DNA of 25,013 nt, from IMG/VR virus record IMGVR_UViG_3300027838_000037, positions 1-25,013 of that record; one strand, 5' to 3'. Of the stretch, positions 3,626 through 6,267 are shown piece by piece; positions within the stretch are counted from its first letter, which is position 1; every line of letters starts with the position of its first letter. The DNA comes from a virus (taxonomy: Duplodnaviria; Caudoviricetes). Under the pieces are notes generated by a model that had not been told where the DNA came from, searched no databases, and saw nothing but the letters and a program-made list of their open reading frames with translations. A program made the translations under genes and the position numbers.

Positions 3626-3854
3626 CTGATTTTTCTAACTCAGCAGCTATTAAAGCCTTGATAAATTGCTGGGGGGTTATTTCACTTTGGACTGCGGCAA
3701 TAATAAATTCTGCCATATGTATTTCTTTTTCTATCCAAAACTTCTTTCTTATTAAATCTTCTAATTGAGCTTCATAACCTTCTAATTCTTTTTGTTTACG
3801 GACTTTGTTTTCAATGATATCCGTAATCGAAATAATATTAGTCTGGTCTGTCAT
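3618..3854 (-). CDS. Hypothetical coiled-coil protein
   Basis: 78 aa between gp33 and gp59, overlapping both. Confidence 0.75.
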   Translation of the reverse strand: MTDQTNIISITDIIENKVRKQKELEGYEAQLEDLIRKKFWIEKEIHMAEFIIAAVQSEITPQQFIKALIAAELEKSDE

Positions 3855-4078
3855 AGCCCAGAAATAGAACTAGTCTTTGGCAAATAATTTAAAGCTTCTG
3901 CATTAGACTGAATCTTTTCTTTTAAAGATTTGTCAATATATCTAGTAACCTGATCAGGCTCTAGTAGGTGTGTTTCGCAATAATGTAGAACAGCATCCAT
4001 ATAACTGATACGCTTAGACTTAACCAAGTCCTCTATAATTACTGTAAATTTTTTAGTAGATAAACCAATACTCATCAT
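3851..4078 (-). CDS. gp33: T4-like late promoter transcription coactivator gp33
   Basis: F...IE.LV....ISYMDAVLHYCE...I.KSLKEKI...A..LNYL pattern and synteny with gp59. Confidence 0.88.
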   Translation of the reverse strand: MMSIGLSTKKFTVIIEDLVKSKRISYMDAVLHYCETHLLEPDQVTRYIDKSLKEKIQSNAEALNYLPKTSSISGL

Positions 4079-4173
4079 ATAAACTCCAAAAAAGTGAACC
4101 GCTTATCCTTTGCCTTCACGGTTCGGGGAGAGGGCGATATGCTAAAAGGACCCAACCTCAAACTAGTTTTAGT

Positions 4174-4619
4174 GGGGTGGCTTTGATAACAAGGCGCCAC
4201 CCCGAACCCCGGAGAAGATTACGCAGCTAAGCGATACTCCTCGAAATAAAAGTCATCATTGGCTTCTATGTTTTAGTGTCAGATTCCTCAGATAACTTTT
4301 CGTCCGTCCGTCGATCCTGATTCACCCCCCTTAATTCAGTGTTTCTTTCATCAGGTACTTTACCAATACCTACAACTCTATCCCATTCTCGTTGAGTATA
4401 ATACCAGTCAGGTCGTTTATCTTTAACTCCATGAACAGTTTGTCCTATGAGTTTTGATTCTGACTTTTCATTTTCTGCCAATTTATCTTTCCAGTAAAGA
4501 TTCATTAATTTTGAAAAATCTCTTATACCATTATACTCTTGTCGTGAATTGGTGGAGGTGGCCGGTACTGCCCCGGCGTCCGATCCGTCTACTTGTTTAT
4601 CGTCATCAGTATCTTTCAC
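4174..4619 (-). ncRNA. ssrA: Circularly permuted two-piece tmRNA (alphaproteobacterial type): acceptor piece ~4619-4550, intervening segment 4549-4330, coding piece 4329-~4174
   Basis: The acceptor piece ends GAC-GCCGG-GGCAGTA-CCGGC-CACCTCC-ACCA. The downstream coding piece begins GGGGGTGAATCAGGATCGAC and pairs 7/7 with CACCTCC, including G3:U70. The tag frame 4263-4219 reads ANDDFYFEEYRLAA*. A 3' motif CGGGGTTCGGGGTGGC...GCCACCCC follows. Outer ends are approximate. Confidence 0.93.
4266..4505 (-). CDS. Possible small protein starting in the tmRNA intervening segment (79 aa from ATG 4505)
   Basis: Open frame MNLYWKDK...DWYYTQREWDRVVGIGKVPDER..., protein-like in composition. It runs into the tmRNA coding piece and has no clear SD. 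Confidence 0.4.
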   Translation of the reverse strand: MNLYWKDKLAENEKSESKLIGQTVHGVKDKRPDWYYTQREWDRVVGIGKVPDERNTELRGVNQDRRTDEKLSEESDTKT

Positions 4620-4623
4620 ACAT

Positions 4624-6267
4624 CTATTTATGTATGTTCTCGCTCAAATACTCATACATCGTTGGTGCATTGTGTGCTATCTCTTGTACATCTGCTGTTC
4701 TATTTTTCCAATACAACCAAGTTGATTTCATTTTATGGTCGACCCAGTCTTTATCAAAGTGTGGTTGAATCATTCTTGTTTTCTTAACTGAATAATCATT
4801 GGTAATAAACCAACCACTGCCTATAGCTATACACAGATATGCATTTGACAAATATCTTAGGCCTTCAGCTTTTAATCTACACATAGCTAATTCTATACCT
4901 ACATCATAAGTATTATTCATTCCGAAAGACCCTGTAGCTACTAATCCAGAAGGCCAGAACTCTGGTTGTTTTGTATCTATACCCCACCAATGTTCACCCA
5001 TTTCTTTTTCTTGTGACCAATAATTCCAGTATGGAGTATCATCTCGTTCTGAAAGATAAAAATGCATCATTACAAAATACTTCCAAGCATCTGTCAACTC
5101 TCGTTGAACTAAACACCAAGCATCTCTATCATATTGTGTTACTTTACCATCTCTCATTGTAAGAGTTTTAATCAATAAATCTATAGGCTCTGTAACTAAT
5201 ACTAATCCAGATGATTCTAATGGTTCAATAAATCCATTTGATAAACCTATAGCACAAACATTCTTAACCCAACCTCTTTTGTGTCTACCAGTTTTAATCT
5301 TTATGTTTTTATAATCTAATTCGTCACCATGACCAATGTGTCGTTGAAATTCTGCTAATGCAGTATCATCATCTACAAAAGAATCACAATACACATAACC
5401 AGTACCAATACTATTCCAAAGAGGAATATTCCACACCCATCCATTTTCTATACCGGTGTTATTGGTCCATACTTCCATTTCTTTTTCTTTATCTTTATAT
5501 GGTTTGTGTACTGCCCAAGCCTTATTATTAGGAAGATCCTCTGACCAATCATAAAACTTTTCTTTCATTGCACCTTCTAATAGTAAACTCTTAAATCCAG
5601 TACAATCAATATATAAATCTGCTGTTAATTCACCATGGTCTGTTGTGGTTACTCCACTAACATACCCCTTTTCATCTAGGCTTACATCAACAACATCATC
5701 TTTAATATGTGTTACTTCTTCACATAAAGTATCCCTTAGATAAATACCTAATTTAGTAGCATCTACTTGATAAGCTAAATCTTGTAAACCTGAATATGGT
5801 TTTAATACATCAATACCTTCATAGTTATGATGTATCTTATTACCATATATTAAAGGCATTTGTGGATAAAAACTATTAACAAAATCACTGTTAGGTAACT
5901 CTGGATCAATCCACTTCTTCAGCATCCAACTATCTCGTCCAGTAACATCTAAATTATCTGTATCCATTCTGCCAAAAGGATAATGGTACGGCTCTCCACC
6001 TAACTTATGAAAATCTGTAAACTTAATTGATGCCTTATATGTTGCATCACACGCTGACATCCACTCTTCATCACCACTAATGTTCAGACCTAACTGGTGT
6101 AAAAATACATTAATATGACCGATGGTAGATTCCCCAACACCTACTGTTGAGATGTTGGAAGATTCTACCAAGGTAACTTTAATATGAGGTGTATGAACAC
6201 GCAAGGCGGCTGCTGTAAACCAACCAGCAGTACCGCCACCAACAATTAAAATATTATCTACTTTCAT
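4624..6267 (-). CDS. Flavin-dependent (tryptophan-type, PrnA-like) halogenase
   Basis: GGGTAGW FAD motif, GVGEST, ATYK catalytic-Lys region, IDCTGF, WxWxIP (WVWNIP), FIEPLESSG. Confidence 0.92.
   Translation of the reverse strand: MKVDNILIVGGGTAGWFTAAALRVHTPHIKVTLVESSNISTVGVGESTIGHINVFLHQLGLNISGDEEWMSACDATYKASIKFTDFHKLGGEPYHYPFGRMDTDNLDVTGRDSWMLKKWIDPELPNSDFVNSFYPQMPLIYGNKIHHNYEGIDVLKPYSGLQDLAYQVDATKLGIYLRDTLCEEVTHIKDDVVDVSLDEKGYVSGVTTTDHGELTADLYIDCTGFKSLLLEGAMKEKFYDWSEDLPNNKAWAVHKPYKDKEKEMEVWTNNTGIENGWVWNIPLWNSIGTGYVYCDSFVDDDTALAEFQRHIGHGDELDYKNIKIKTGRHKRGWVKNVCAIGLSNGFIEPLESSGLVLVTEPIDLLIKTLTMRDGKVTQYDRDAWCLVQRELTDAWKYFVMMHFYLSERDDTPYWNYWSQEKEMGEHWWGIDTKQPEFWPSGLVATGSFGMNNTYDVGIELAMCRLKAEGLRYLSNAYLCIAIGSGWFITNDYSVKKTRMIQPHFDKDWVDHKMKSTWLYWKNRTADVQEIAHNAPTMYEYLSENIHK
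4625..4632 (-). promoter_or_regulatory. T4-like late promoter motif CATAAATA directly upstream of the tmRNA
   Basis: NATAAATA overlapping the halogenase stop codon, a few nt before the predicted acceptor piece. Confidence 0.6.

Follow-up and report, generated by a model that had tools for sequence, protein, structure and literature searches.

A conserved reading frame through the acceptor piece and intervening segment of a two-piece phage tmRNA gene

Two-piece tmRNA genes of phages and transcripts with two uses

The closest described systems are the two-piece tmRNA genes of the Pelagibacter phages HTVC008M and Mosig and of the Methylophilales phage Melnitz. They have an alpha-type match in Rfam and share the order acceptor piece, CCA, intervening segment, G1 and coding piece with the locus described here, which lies in a stretch of 25,013 nucleotides from a Caudoviricetes virus (IMG/VR record IMGVR_UViG_3300027838_000037, hereafter the window). 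Among cultured phages, these three also have the gp33 closest to that of the window (44–51% identity). The tmRNA gene is found just upstream of the gp33-like gene in Mosig (abutting) and in Melnitz (with one small CDS of the opposite strand between them), and about 540 nt upstream of it, with two CDS between, in HTVC008M. Pelagimyophage-type two-piece tmRNA genes were described by Buchholz et al. (2022, PMC9004378), and passages of the main text of that article mention no ORF in the spacer.

The intervening segments of HTVC008M and Mosig are hairpins of 49 and 44 nt without ORF, and that of Melnitz (142 nt) contains an unrelated, unannotated ORF which has its own Shine-Dalgarno sequence and ATG. 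All three are unlike the window in this respect, and in none of them does a frame enter from the acceptor piece. A glutamine riboswitch, which has been reported for Melnitz, was found in that phage (L082) but neither in the window nor in the seven relatives scanned.

The spacers of other phage tmRNA genes also carry mini-genes led by a Shine-Dalgarno sequence. As in the window, the stretch from CCA to G1 is occupied by a small conserved ORF, and this ORF differs between phages. In these mini-genes CCA-TAA is followed by the Shine-Dalgarno sequence and by an ATG 12–22 nt past the CCA, whereas in the clade of the window no stop codon follows the CCA and most spacers offer no start codon before the conserved part of the ORF: the window ORF continues the frame of the acceptor piece, with its predicted start codon at the gene's 5′ edge. 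Many of the Shine-Dalgarno-led mini-genes stop just before G1, so that the excised spacer could be a complete mini-mRNA. No published report of such small genes in phage tmRNA spacers was found.

Transcripts that serve both as functional RNA and as messenger of a small protein include SgrS/SgrT, RNAIII/hld and SR1/SR1P. In these dual-function RNAs the ORF sits next to the part that acts as RNA, whereas in the window the ORF is written through the tRNA-like domain and the two uses would need mutually exclusive processing. A different likeness is that of a protein-like ORF within a segment cut from a stable RNA precursor: the 23S rRNA intervening sequence of Coxiella burnetii carries the S23p ORF, whose protein has been suggested not to be made (PMC4990558). 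As presented in parts of that article, the S23p ORF lies wholly inside the excised element, whereas the window ORF is under purifying selection and overlaps the mature RNA. In E. coli, the arfA mRNA loses its stop codon by RNase cleavage and its product is tagged by tmRNA for degradation (PMC10107115), which is the logic that cleavage by RNase P at G1 would impose on the window ORF. According to excerpts of that source, the arfA cut is made by RNase III and the gene encodes a rescue factor, whereas the window ORF would be cut by tRNA-processing enzymes on the tmRNA precursor itself.

The tmRNA gene of the window and the ORF that overlaps it

The window contains a permuted tmRNA gene on the minus strand, like all the features described below, which is called by ARAGORN and by Rfam (tmRNA_permuted, 83 bits for a gathering score of 47; alpha_tmRNA, 71 bits for 50; families RF04321 / RF01849). 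Its acceptor piece (4550..4616) is composed of a 5′ leader, a helix strand (GAUGACGAUAAAC), the T arm, the 3′ acceptor strand and ACCA, and terminates with the CCA end at 4550..4552. It lies upstream of G1 (4329) and of the coding piece that starts there (4128..4329 according to ARAGORN and Rfam), with the intervening segment between them, which is the permuted order. The tRNA-like domain is complete, with a T arm, an ACCA 3′ end and a 7-bp acceptor stem with G3:U70, in which GGGGGTG on the G1 side pairs with CACCTCC, G3:U included. The tag reading frame (4219..4263) consists of the resume codon GCC (4263–4261), ANDDFYFEEYRLAA and TAA.

Among relatives, 19 variants of the tag are found, every one of the form ANDD...(A/R)(L/M)AA. 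The four acceptor-stem and four T-stem variants are each fully paired and G3:U is kept, and in Rfam searches tmRNA_permuted scores above the gathering score in all seven diverged relatives tested. The covariation shows that the tmRNA is intact, that it changes by compensatory substitutions and that, by this measure, it is functional. ARAGORN missed the tmRNA in 25 of the 59 loci seeded with the peptide; 16 of these 25 do hold one, as determined by hand and with Rfam (in L034 the contig ends before G1), and nine peptide-seeded loci (L050, L068–L071 and L073–L076) have no tmRNA.

The gene is located between a gene for a tryptophan-halogenase-like protein of 547 aa upstream (4624..6267; PF04820, 2e-101) and a gene for a late-transcription coactivator downstream (gp33-like, 3851..4078). 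The ORF listing confirms the observation of the initial annotation that a frame overlapping the tmRNA gene has no stop from a GTG at 4619 to a TAG at 4266. This 117-codon ORF (4266..4619) spans the acceptor piece, which doubles as its codons 2–23/24, the whole intervening segment, which is coding throughout in the ORF frame, and 61 nt at the start of the coding piece. The predicted start GTG (4617..4619) has no other start codon before it in the open frame; it lies 4 nt past the TAG of the halogenase-like gene and 5 nt past an ATAAATA box, and the stop TAG (4266..4268) is 2 nt ahead of the resume codon, as had also been noted. The translation (117 aa) contains MNLYWKDK...DWYYTQREWDRVVGIGKVPDER, which begins at Met39 with an internal ATG (4503..4505) that is not conserved as a start, in-frame starts being absent from most relatives' spacers. 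A conserved core, WYYTQREWDRVVGIGKVPDERN, extends from W72 to N93 (4341..4406).

The intervening segment measures 220 nt (4330..4549), as first reported. It had also been called AT-rich, but its GC content of 0.323 is not specially low compared to 0.356 for the whole window. The statement that the intervening segments of permuted tmRNAs are usually tens of nucleotides long is correct for bacteria, where a pattern scan of genomes gave a median of 29 nt and a length of at least 100 nt in 2 of the 108 loci measured, but does not apply to phages, since in a sample of 105 the median is 79 nt and 35 reach that length. The ends of the spacer are able to pair (AAUUCA...UGAAUU); its fold has a z-score of −1.57, and 16 of 200 shuffles fold as well, so that a stable structure is not significant. 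The TATAAT that lies early in the spacer (4530..4535) was considered as a promoter and rejected: it encodes Glu-Tyr-Asn, it is replaced by TAT CAA GG or TAC GAT GG in relatives, and a sigma-70 scan found no promoter in the spacer. Its occurrence is attributed to chance.

Coding evidence and the site of initiation

The frame was compared in 46 unique tmRNA-borne loci, T-arm-seeded and peptide-seeded. An exact search with the DNA of the T arm, which is blind to the ORF, gave 21 loci, all of which have a spacer of 118–277 nt whose length is 1 mod 3; in these loci the frame +2 from the CCA has no stop, compared to 2–13 stops in the other frames. In all 46 unique relatives the spacer (116–277 nt) is open in the identical frame relative to the CCA end. 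The remaining two spacer frames carry 0–13 stops, and the openness of the conserved frame is far beyond chance. The distance from the CCA to the peptide motif takes 12 distinct values, all 2 mod 3, whereas the distance from the motif to G1 is either 0 or 2 mod 3. It is thus the acceptor piece, and not G1, that sets the phase.

The core YYT..EW.R...P(D/P)ER has a pN/pS of 0.26 (JC dN/dS 0.11), against 1.73 and 1.04 in the shifted frames, and the entropy of its third codon positions is 1.13, compared to 0.49 and 0.45. A second conserved module (module A), which starts at spacer codon 3 and lies upstream of ATG 4505, has a pN/pS of 0.37, against 1.21 and 1.49 in the shifted frames; its arginine is encoded by CGG, CGT, CGC, CGA and AGA. 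In L004 and L063 the leader has lost 6 nt, which leaves the phase unchanged. Homologues between tmRNA halves with a dN/dS below 1, for which the initial annotation had suggested a search, thus exist at 46 unique loci, and the frame is disrupted in none of them. These substitution patterns demonstrate that the spacer-coded part is a real protein-coding gene under purifying selection. Since no codon-position signature was found in the parts of the ORF that are coded by the acceptor piece or by the coding piece, their translation is deduced only from the conservation of the phase and the lack of another start.

The ORF matches 262 protein clusters at E ≤ 1e-3. Among the 120 clusters listed, 118 begin with (M/V)-K/N/I/V..., gene callers placing the start at the GTG of the window. 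Homologues without any tmRNA are also present, e.g., in L050 (54 aa), L071 (72 aa), and L073 and L070 (124 aa). A profile search gave 53 representatives at E ≤ 1e-3, mostly of 41–125 aa, in which the motif comes straight after the methionine. This N-terminal motif reads YYYTPxEWSRxxGxGxVPDERN, and its Y, Y, T, E, W, R, P and R are invariant in the tmRNA-borne and free-standing copies.

Neither the ORF nor its free-standing relatives could be assigned to a family of Pfam or PHROGs, and the ESM Atlas gave no usable match for the protein, which has no family, name or partner in the databases searched, these three included. In the cultured-phage collection nothing was found for the tmRNA region (blastn), for the ORF (tblastn) or for the free-standing homologues L073 and L071. 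The AlphaFold2 model, built from an alignment of 127 rows, is poor (mean pLDDT 56.7); it is mostly disordered with two helices, which suggests that the protein may carry a short partner-binding motif.

In most relatives, neither ATG nor GTG nor TTG precedes the conserved modules within the spacer; the spacer of L014 has no start codon at all, and that of L005 none before its last codon. On the other hand, a GTG (ATG in L004 and L063) is found 4–6 nt past ATAAATA in 44 of the 46 unique relatives, and in 41 of them the upstream gene of the same strand, of which there are at least three different ones, stops 4–12 nt before this start. A Shine-Dalgarno sequence was searched for before GTG 4619 and is absent; 15 of the 31 genes of the window have one. 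The absence of a start in the spacer, the constraint that begins at spacer codon 3 and the phase tied to the acceptor piece together imply that ribosomes must enter the frame at the GTG that borders the tmRNA gene on its 5′ side. Initiation at GTG 4619, followed by reading through the T arm and the CCA, is therefore the most likely course on this comparative evidence. It counts against it that the ribosome would need to unfold the stable tRNA-like domain.

Initiation could occur in two ways. On read-through transcripts, ribosomes that terminate at the upstream stop, 4 nt away, might reinitiate at the GTG. Alternatively, the GTG would be a leaderless start if the ATAAATA box 5 nt upstream of it fires. 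T4-type late promoters have the box TATAAATA about 6 nt upstream of the transcript start, and GTG is a weak leaderless start in known systems. The putative promoter of the window, CATAAATA (4625..4632), matches the T4-type box at 7 of 8 positions and overlaps the stop of the upstream gene. Its position is conserved, the relatives reading (T/G/A/C)ATAAATA or TAAATAA. With 14 occurrences in the window, compared to 16.7 expected, boxes of the ATAAATA type show no enrichment.

Translation or processing of the transcript

Seawater metatranscriptome contigs from three studies (X1, X2 and X3) join the spacer to the coding piece: a 423-nt contig at 4142–4562 in X1, contigs at 4121–4347 and 4319–4469 in X2, and at 4207–4357 and 4336–4486 in X3. 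Other contigs (4604–4775 and 4544–4694) span the GTG. The 423-nt contig of X1 is the only one to extend more than 31 nt to both sides of G1; it has 17 differences from the window and therefore comes from a relative. Assembled contigs cannot show the ends, the strand or the level of an RNA, and the uncovered parts of the locus (the acceptor piece in X2 and X3, and 4469–4549) were given no weight. The cover over 20 kb is patchy (20, 7, 2 and 3 of 30 bins) and the tmRNA bin is the highest in X1, so that RNA fits better than DNA carry-over.

Taken as a whole, the comparison makes it probable that 4266–4619 is a real conserved coding frame superimposed on the 5′ half of a functional two-piece tmRNA gene. 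Ribosomes would most likely read it on the transcript before processing, from the GTG through the T arm and the CCA and across the entire 220-nt segment. The transcript would have two exclusive fates: translation into a protein of 85–126 aa, or cleavage by RNase P at G1 and trimming at the CCA, which would give the two tmRNA pieces. The ends of the protein may be hydrophilic tails dictated by the RNA, the functional part being coded by the spacer.

Cleavage by RNase P at G1 is assumed from the biology of tRNA and tmRNA. The ORF stop is at the position of the window in 28 of the 46 unique relatives, and in the others its position ranges between 52 nt ahead of the resume codon and 37 nt beyond it; the stop is beyond G1 in all 46, which places the assumed RNase P site inside the ORF, upstream of the stop. 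The anatomy is thus compatible with non-stop self-tagging: if the transcript were cut at G1 during translation, the messenger would have no stop codon and the product would be tagged by trans-translation. A stronger version of this idea is that the tRNA-like half of the tmRNA is translated, that the RNase P cut makes the messenger non-stop, and that the protein is tagged by its own tmRNA, so that its level would inversely report the processing of the precursor and trans-translation, like an ArfA-like sensor. We regard this version as tentative and rather doubtful.

The initial annotation had proposed a gene nested in the excised piece. It was right in that the spacer encodes a selected protein, which is, however, not confined to it, the frame being entered from the GTG at the 5′ edge. 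A gene wholly inside the excised piece would use ATG 4505 in the spacer as its start, either before or after the spacer is cut out of the precursor, and the frame through the acceptor piece would be incidental. The window does have this in-frame ATG (4505–4503), and at least five unrelated families of small ORFs in phage tmRNA spacers have their own Shine-Dalgarno sequence and ATG. However, no Shine-Dalgarno sequence precedes ATG 4505, most spacers of the clade offer no start before the conserved modules, and module A precedes this ATG yet is constrained as protein. The 12 distances from the CCA to the motif are all in phase with the acceptor piece, whereas an internal start needs no such phase. 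A start inside the spacer is therefore unlikely.

The existence of free-standing homologues implies that a capture did happen at some time, and the spacer ends can pair. The spacer could thus hold a captured fragment of a free-standing gene, untranslated and kept for folding or processing at the RNA level. This is very unlikely, because the tmRNA-borne copies, compared with one another, show purifying selection (pN/pS 0.26 and 0.37, controls in the shifted frames being above 1), length changes come in steps of three nt only, no stop interrupts any of the 46 unique copies, and the spacer is not significantly structured (z −1.57). The other proposal of the initial annotation, that the tmRNA halves are or become separately transcribed genes with an independent gene between them, has the TATAAT at 4535–4530 and the long spacer in its favor and is the most improbable of all, since this TATAAT is not conserved in relatives, a sigma-70 scan found neither promoter pair nor terminator in the spacer, the contigs link the spacer to the coding piece across G1, and within the spacer the ORF lacks its own start.

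Translation of the frame from the GTG at the edge of the gene thus remains the favored reading, and what is new here is the in-frame read-through of the acceptor piece, as opposed to spacer genes with their own start. The tmRNA genes are usually treated as pure RNA, and the intervening segment of the two-piece form as a throw-away; here a selected protein frame crosses both the tRNA-like domain and the segment. It is likely that one transcript is both RNA precursor and messenger, and since it is either processed or translated, these two uses compete. The locus provides a natural system, open to experiment, in which a protein and a structured RNA overlap on the same strand; it recurs in hundreds of marine phage variants (the 262 clusters), and it leads to the question of what lets ribosomes initiate at the border of an RNA gene when no Shine-Dalgarno sequence is present. 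Standard annotation misses such spacer proteins, or calls them without noticing the tmRNA. Together with the Shine-Dalgarno-led spacer genes, they make phage tmRNA genes carriers of small proteins. If the non-stop coupling is true, it would give a phage a novel means of sensing the ribosome-rescue capacity of its host.

The permuted tmRNA and its spacer

The 25-kb IMG/VR fragment derives from a marine T4-like phage whose genes include ThyX, PhoH, a 2OG oxygenase, a tryptophan halogenase and a gp33-like late-transcription coactivator; the coactivator has its closest cultured relatives in HTVC008M (Pelagibacter phage, 50.7%), Melnitz (Methylophilales phage) and Mosig (Pelagibacter phage). ARAGORN locates a permuted tmRNA with the tag ANDDFYFEEYRLAA at 4128-4642 on the minus strand, where the Rfam models tmRNA_permuted and alpha_tmRNA score 83 and 71 bits, above their gathering scores of 47 and 50. 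On that strand, the CCA end of the 3' acceptor strand CACCUCC-ACCA is read at 4552-4550 and G1, the first nucleotide of GGGGGUG, at 4329; the intervening segment between them is 220 nt long (4549..4330). The ORF listing contains a minus-strand frame of 117 codons (4266..4619) which runs from GTG 4619 to a TAG at 4268-4266, and the resume codon GCC follows at 4263-4261. All the elements described in the initial annotation (the tmRNA, the 220-nt spacer and the frame open from GTG 4619 to TAG 4266) are therefore present, but the spacer is not specially AT-rich, as had been stated (GC 0.323, versus 0.356 in the window). A tRNA-Thr (UGU) gene lies on the same strand, 2 kb downstream of the tmRNA (2135-2211, minus).

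Judging from its sequence variants, the tmRNA of this clade is not a fossil. The acceptor stems GGGGGUG/CACCUCC, GGGGGCG/CGCCUCC, GGGGACG/CGUCUCC and GGGGAUG/CAUCUCC are each fully paired, as are the T stems GCCGG, GUGGG, GCGGG and GAGGG with their matching partners. The 19 tag variants all follow the pattern ANDD...(A/R)(L/M)AA, and tmRNA_permuted scores above the Rfam gathering score in 7/7 diverged clade relatives tested (L002, L025, L036, L053, L072, L078, L081).

Intervening segments had been said to be usually tens of nucleotides long, which is true of bacteria but not of phages, where long spacers are common. Among bacterial genomes, a pattern scan picked up 120 alphaproteobacterial loci, 108 of them parsable, with a median of 29 nt and a maximum of 139 nt (at least 100 nt in 2/108). 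A DNA pattern blind to ORFs gave 120 phage alpha-type tmRNA loci (L229-L348) and 105 unique parsed sequences, whose spacers have a median of 79 nt and reach at least 100 nt in 35/105 and at least 220 nt in 6/105. The spacers of HTVC008M and Mosig are hairpins of 49 and 44 nt. The permuted tmRNA that ARAGORN finds in HTVC008M (NC_020484, L084:617-958; tag ANFNEYALAA) is unannotated in the RefSeq record, and the hypothetical CDS gp194 (locus 388-678) extends into its acceptor piece.

Coding signature of the spacer frame and relatives of its predicted product

An exact search with the T arm of the window, which cannot see the ORF, returned 21 viral loci. Their spacers measure 118, 127, 130, 142, 154, 163, 202, 220 or 277 nt, all 1 mod 3, and the frame +2 from the CCA end contains no stop in any of the 21 or in the window, against 2-13 stops in the other two frames. 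With the spacer peptide as seed, another 59 loci were found; merging the two sets left 46 unique sequences in tmRNA context, including ten T-arm sequences (four T-stem variants), and the same frame is open in every one. Counted from the CCA end, the invariant motif YT..EW.R lies at 12 different distances, each 2 mod 3, while the distance separating the motif from G1 is 0 as well as 2 mod 3.

Nei-Gojobori counts over all pairs, with shifted frames as control, give a pN/pS of 0.26 in frame for the 22-codon core, YYT..EW.R...P(D/P)ER (pS 0.70, pN 0.18; JC-corrected dN/dS 0.11), versus 1.73 and 1.04 in the shifted frames. For module A (R..Y.GIF.F.K), the block encoded upstream of the core from the third spacer codon on, the values in 23 sequences are 0.37 in frame and 1.21 and 1.49 shifted. 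Entropy in the core is 1.13 at the third codon position and 0.49 and 0.45 at the first two, and the Arg of module A is encoded by CGG, CGT, CGC, CGA and AGA. The parts of the frame that overlap the mature tmRNA lack this codon signature, as expected because RNA pairing rules there. The spacer frame is thus very probably a genuine protein gene under selection.

In nine of the 59 peptide-seeded loci there is no tmRNA, and the motif directly follows the start of an ordinary small gene, of 54 aa (L050:517-681), 72 aa counted from ATG (L068, L069, L071) or 124 aa (L070, L073-L076). Searching 1.84 billion representatives with a profile yielded 53 proteins (E<=1e-3), mostly of 41-125 aa and starting like MKNKSYYYTPEEWSRSIGYG... 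The residues Y, Y, T, E, W, R, P and R are invariant in tmRNA-borne and free-standing homologues. Neither the ORF nor the free-standing homologues match a Pfam or PHROG family, the sources searched name the protein only once, as 'hypothetical protein', and the search found no homologues in cultured phages. The AlphaFold model is poor (mean pLDDT 56.7), with a helix at residues 31-52 and a short one over the EW.R part, the rest being disordered; from it we read the product as a putative short partner-binding motif, not a fold. Some free-standing members of the YYYTPxEW family (P0158, P0179) have in common an extra C-terminal domain (...DKHDW.YMM.DDQRSYQKGKQEREEL.RYASLSPEH.ELFMAFA.WGQ...), which could help to find the function of this family.

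Predicted start and end of translation

Most spacers have no ATG, GTG or TTG ahead of the conserved modules: that of L014 has no start codon at all, and that of L005 none until its last codon. Constraint on the protein is nevertheless present from spacer codon 3 on, and the phase follows the acceptor piece, so the frame must be entered upstream of CCA. The initial annotation had proposed a gene nested in the excised piece; the pN/pS values bear out the gene, but it is not confined to that piece. The other proposal, that the two tmRNA halves are becoming separate genes, is not supported: the TATAAT of the spacer is not conserved, and a sequence scan of the spacer found neither a sigma-70 pair nor a terminator. 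This TATAAT consists of Glu-Tyr-Asn codons, and relatives read TAT CAA GG or TAC GAT GG at the same place. The spacer fold is not notably structured (z -1.57).

Upstream of CCA, the open frame offers a single start codon, the GTG located at the 5' edge of the tmRNA gene, replaced by ATG in L004 and L063, where the leader is 6 nt shorter and the phase is kept. Among the matches listed, 118/120 database proteins start with (M/V)-K/N/I/V..., so gene callers independently picked the GTG start. The phase and start-codon data best support a start at GTG 4619 with read-through of the tRNA-like acceptor piece, which we consider likely.

The GTG or ATG lies 4-6 nt past an ATAAATA box in 44/46 sequences. 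At T4 late promoters, transcripts start about six nt past TATAAATA; with this spacing, the transcript start would presumably fall on the G of GTG 4619. The stop of a same-strand upstream gene lies 4-12 nt before the start in 41/46 sequences, with at least three different upstream genes. No Shine-Dalgarno sequence precedes GTG 4619, while 15/31 window genes have one. Because the start is conserved relative to both the box and the upstream stop, two routes would fit: a leaderless start at GTG, or termination-reinitiation on read-through transcripts. The mode of initiation, what the protein would bind and whether processing would couple it to trans-translation are all matters of inference. A sigma-70-like pair, TTGATA-16-TAAAAT (10/12; 4730-4757, minus), inside the halogenase gene, at its 3' end and some 110 nt ahead of GTG, is a possible early promoter, whose transcript would hold the GTG internally; such matches are no commoner in the window than in shuffles.

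Parts of the locus occur, as assembled contigs, in four seawater metatranscriptome runs (X1-X4) belonging to four studies; such contigs show neither ends, strand nor level. A 423-nt contig of X1 over 4142-4562 takes in the coding piece, G1 and the entire spacer; its 17 differences from the window mark it as derived from a relative. X2 has contigs identical to the window at 4121-4347 and 4319-4469, as does X3 at 4207-4357 and 4336-4486. At most, these contigs indicate spacer RNA, joined to the coding piece, that was abundant enough to assemble. GTG 4619 is crossed from the halogenase gene in X1 (4604-4775, identical) and X4 (4544-4694, 12 differences), and some RNA may read into the locus from upstream. 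Cover across 20 kb is patchy (20, 7, 2 and 3 of 30 bins, the tmRNA bin being the top one in X1), which fits RNA better than DNA carry-over.

The stop of the ORF lies past G1 in 46/46 sequences, so cutting at G1 would separate a transcript from its stop codon. The closeness of core and G1 alone may account for this position. In 28/46 sequences the frame ends on a UAA or UAG located two nt upstream of the resume codon, a common feature of tmRNAs. The closest known logic to the non-stop idea of the initial annotation, in which the product would be tagged by the tmRNA cut from its own transcript, is that of arfA (PMC10107115), with a cut transcript that has no stop.

Spacer ORFs in other phages

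An open run with a shuffle p<=0.05 occurs in 15/35 phage spacers of at least 100 nt, about 2 being expected. At least five further unrelated ORF families occupy phage tmRNA spacers, with pN/pS of 0.28-0.49: the Melnitz, WISW...GPLLIRVF, CIEYICINNYS and NEFE types, and a membrane type with WSICAD. In most of them, CCA-TAA is followed by a Shine-Dalgarno sequence and, 12-22 nt past CCA, by an ATG; many end within 20 nt of G1. Loci with unrelated small spacer ORFs include L237/L236/L315/L277, L299/L295/L348, L278/L268, L291/L283 and L286, the last with a 120-codon ORF and its own Shine-Dalgarno sequence in a 499-nt spacer.

The spacer of the annotated tmRNA of Melnitz (MZ577097, L082:864-1028) is 142 nt long and contains an unannotated 54-codon ORF, MFKWLSKTRLVVITRDYF..., with GGAG 7-8 nt ahead of its ATG at CCA+19. 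The ORF has relatives in L205-L222 and is maintained across 12 unique viral contigs, whose spacers measure 142, 166, 185 or 186 nt; in one copy an early stop cuts it short. Over 9 aligned sequences its pN/pS is 0.44.

In L297, L265, L273 and L308, the longest spacer frame likewise runs in from the acceptor piece, with the same phase (...GAVP.AST...), so acceptor-piece read-through may not be unique to the clade of the window. L297 has an ATG in the T stem itself, and the L265 peptide, which has no start of its own, is zinc-ribbon-like (CxxC...CxxC).

In some relatives, the stretch between the tmRNA and the gp33 start includes a conserved element, GUGGUC(C/U)CUGCC...GCCACA...GGGAUAGG, about 60-100 nt long (L025, about 1880-1940; L053, about 1830-1900; L072, about 1800-1870; L078; L081, 1760-1830). 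It is absent from the window. No Rfam family matches it at gathering score, and relaxing the cut-off to E<=1 for L081 gave no match either; possibly it represents a gp33 leader or riboswitch of an unclassified type.

Literature searches returned no published coding ORF in a tmRNA intervening segment, although the supplements of PMC11915505 and PMC9004378 could list such features. As far as its available text goes, the tmRNA database paper (PMC11915505) describes nothing in intervening segments beyond a tRNA-Ala gene and a repeat element. The 23S rRNA intervening sequence with S23p (PMC4990558) is a parallel to an ORF in a tmRNA spacer. The case of the window is related to known kinds, namely dual-function RNAs, ORFs in excised RNA segments and phage spacer mini-genes; what sets it apart is the same-strand, in-phase overlap with a functional tRNA-like domain.
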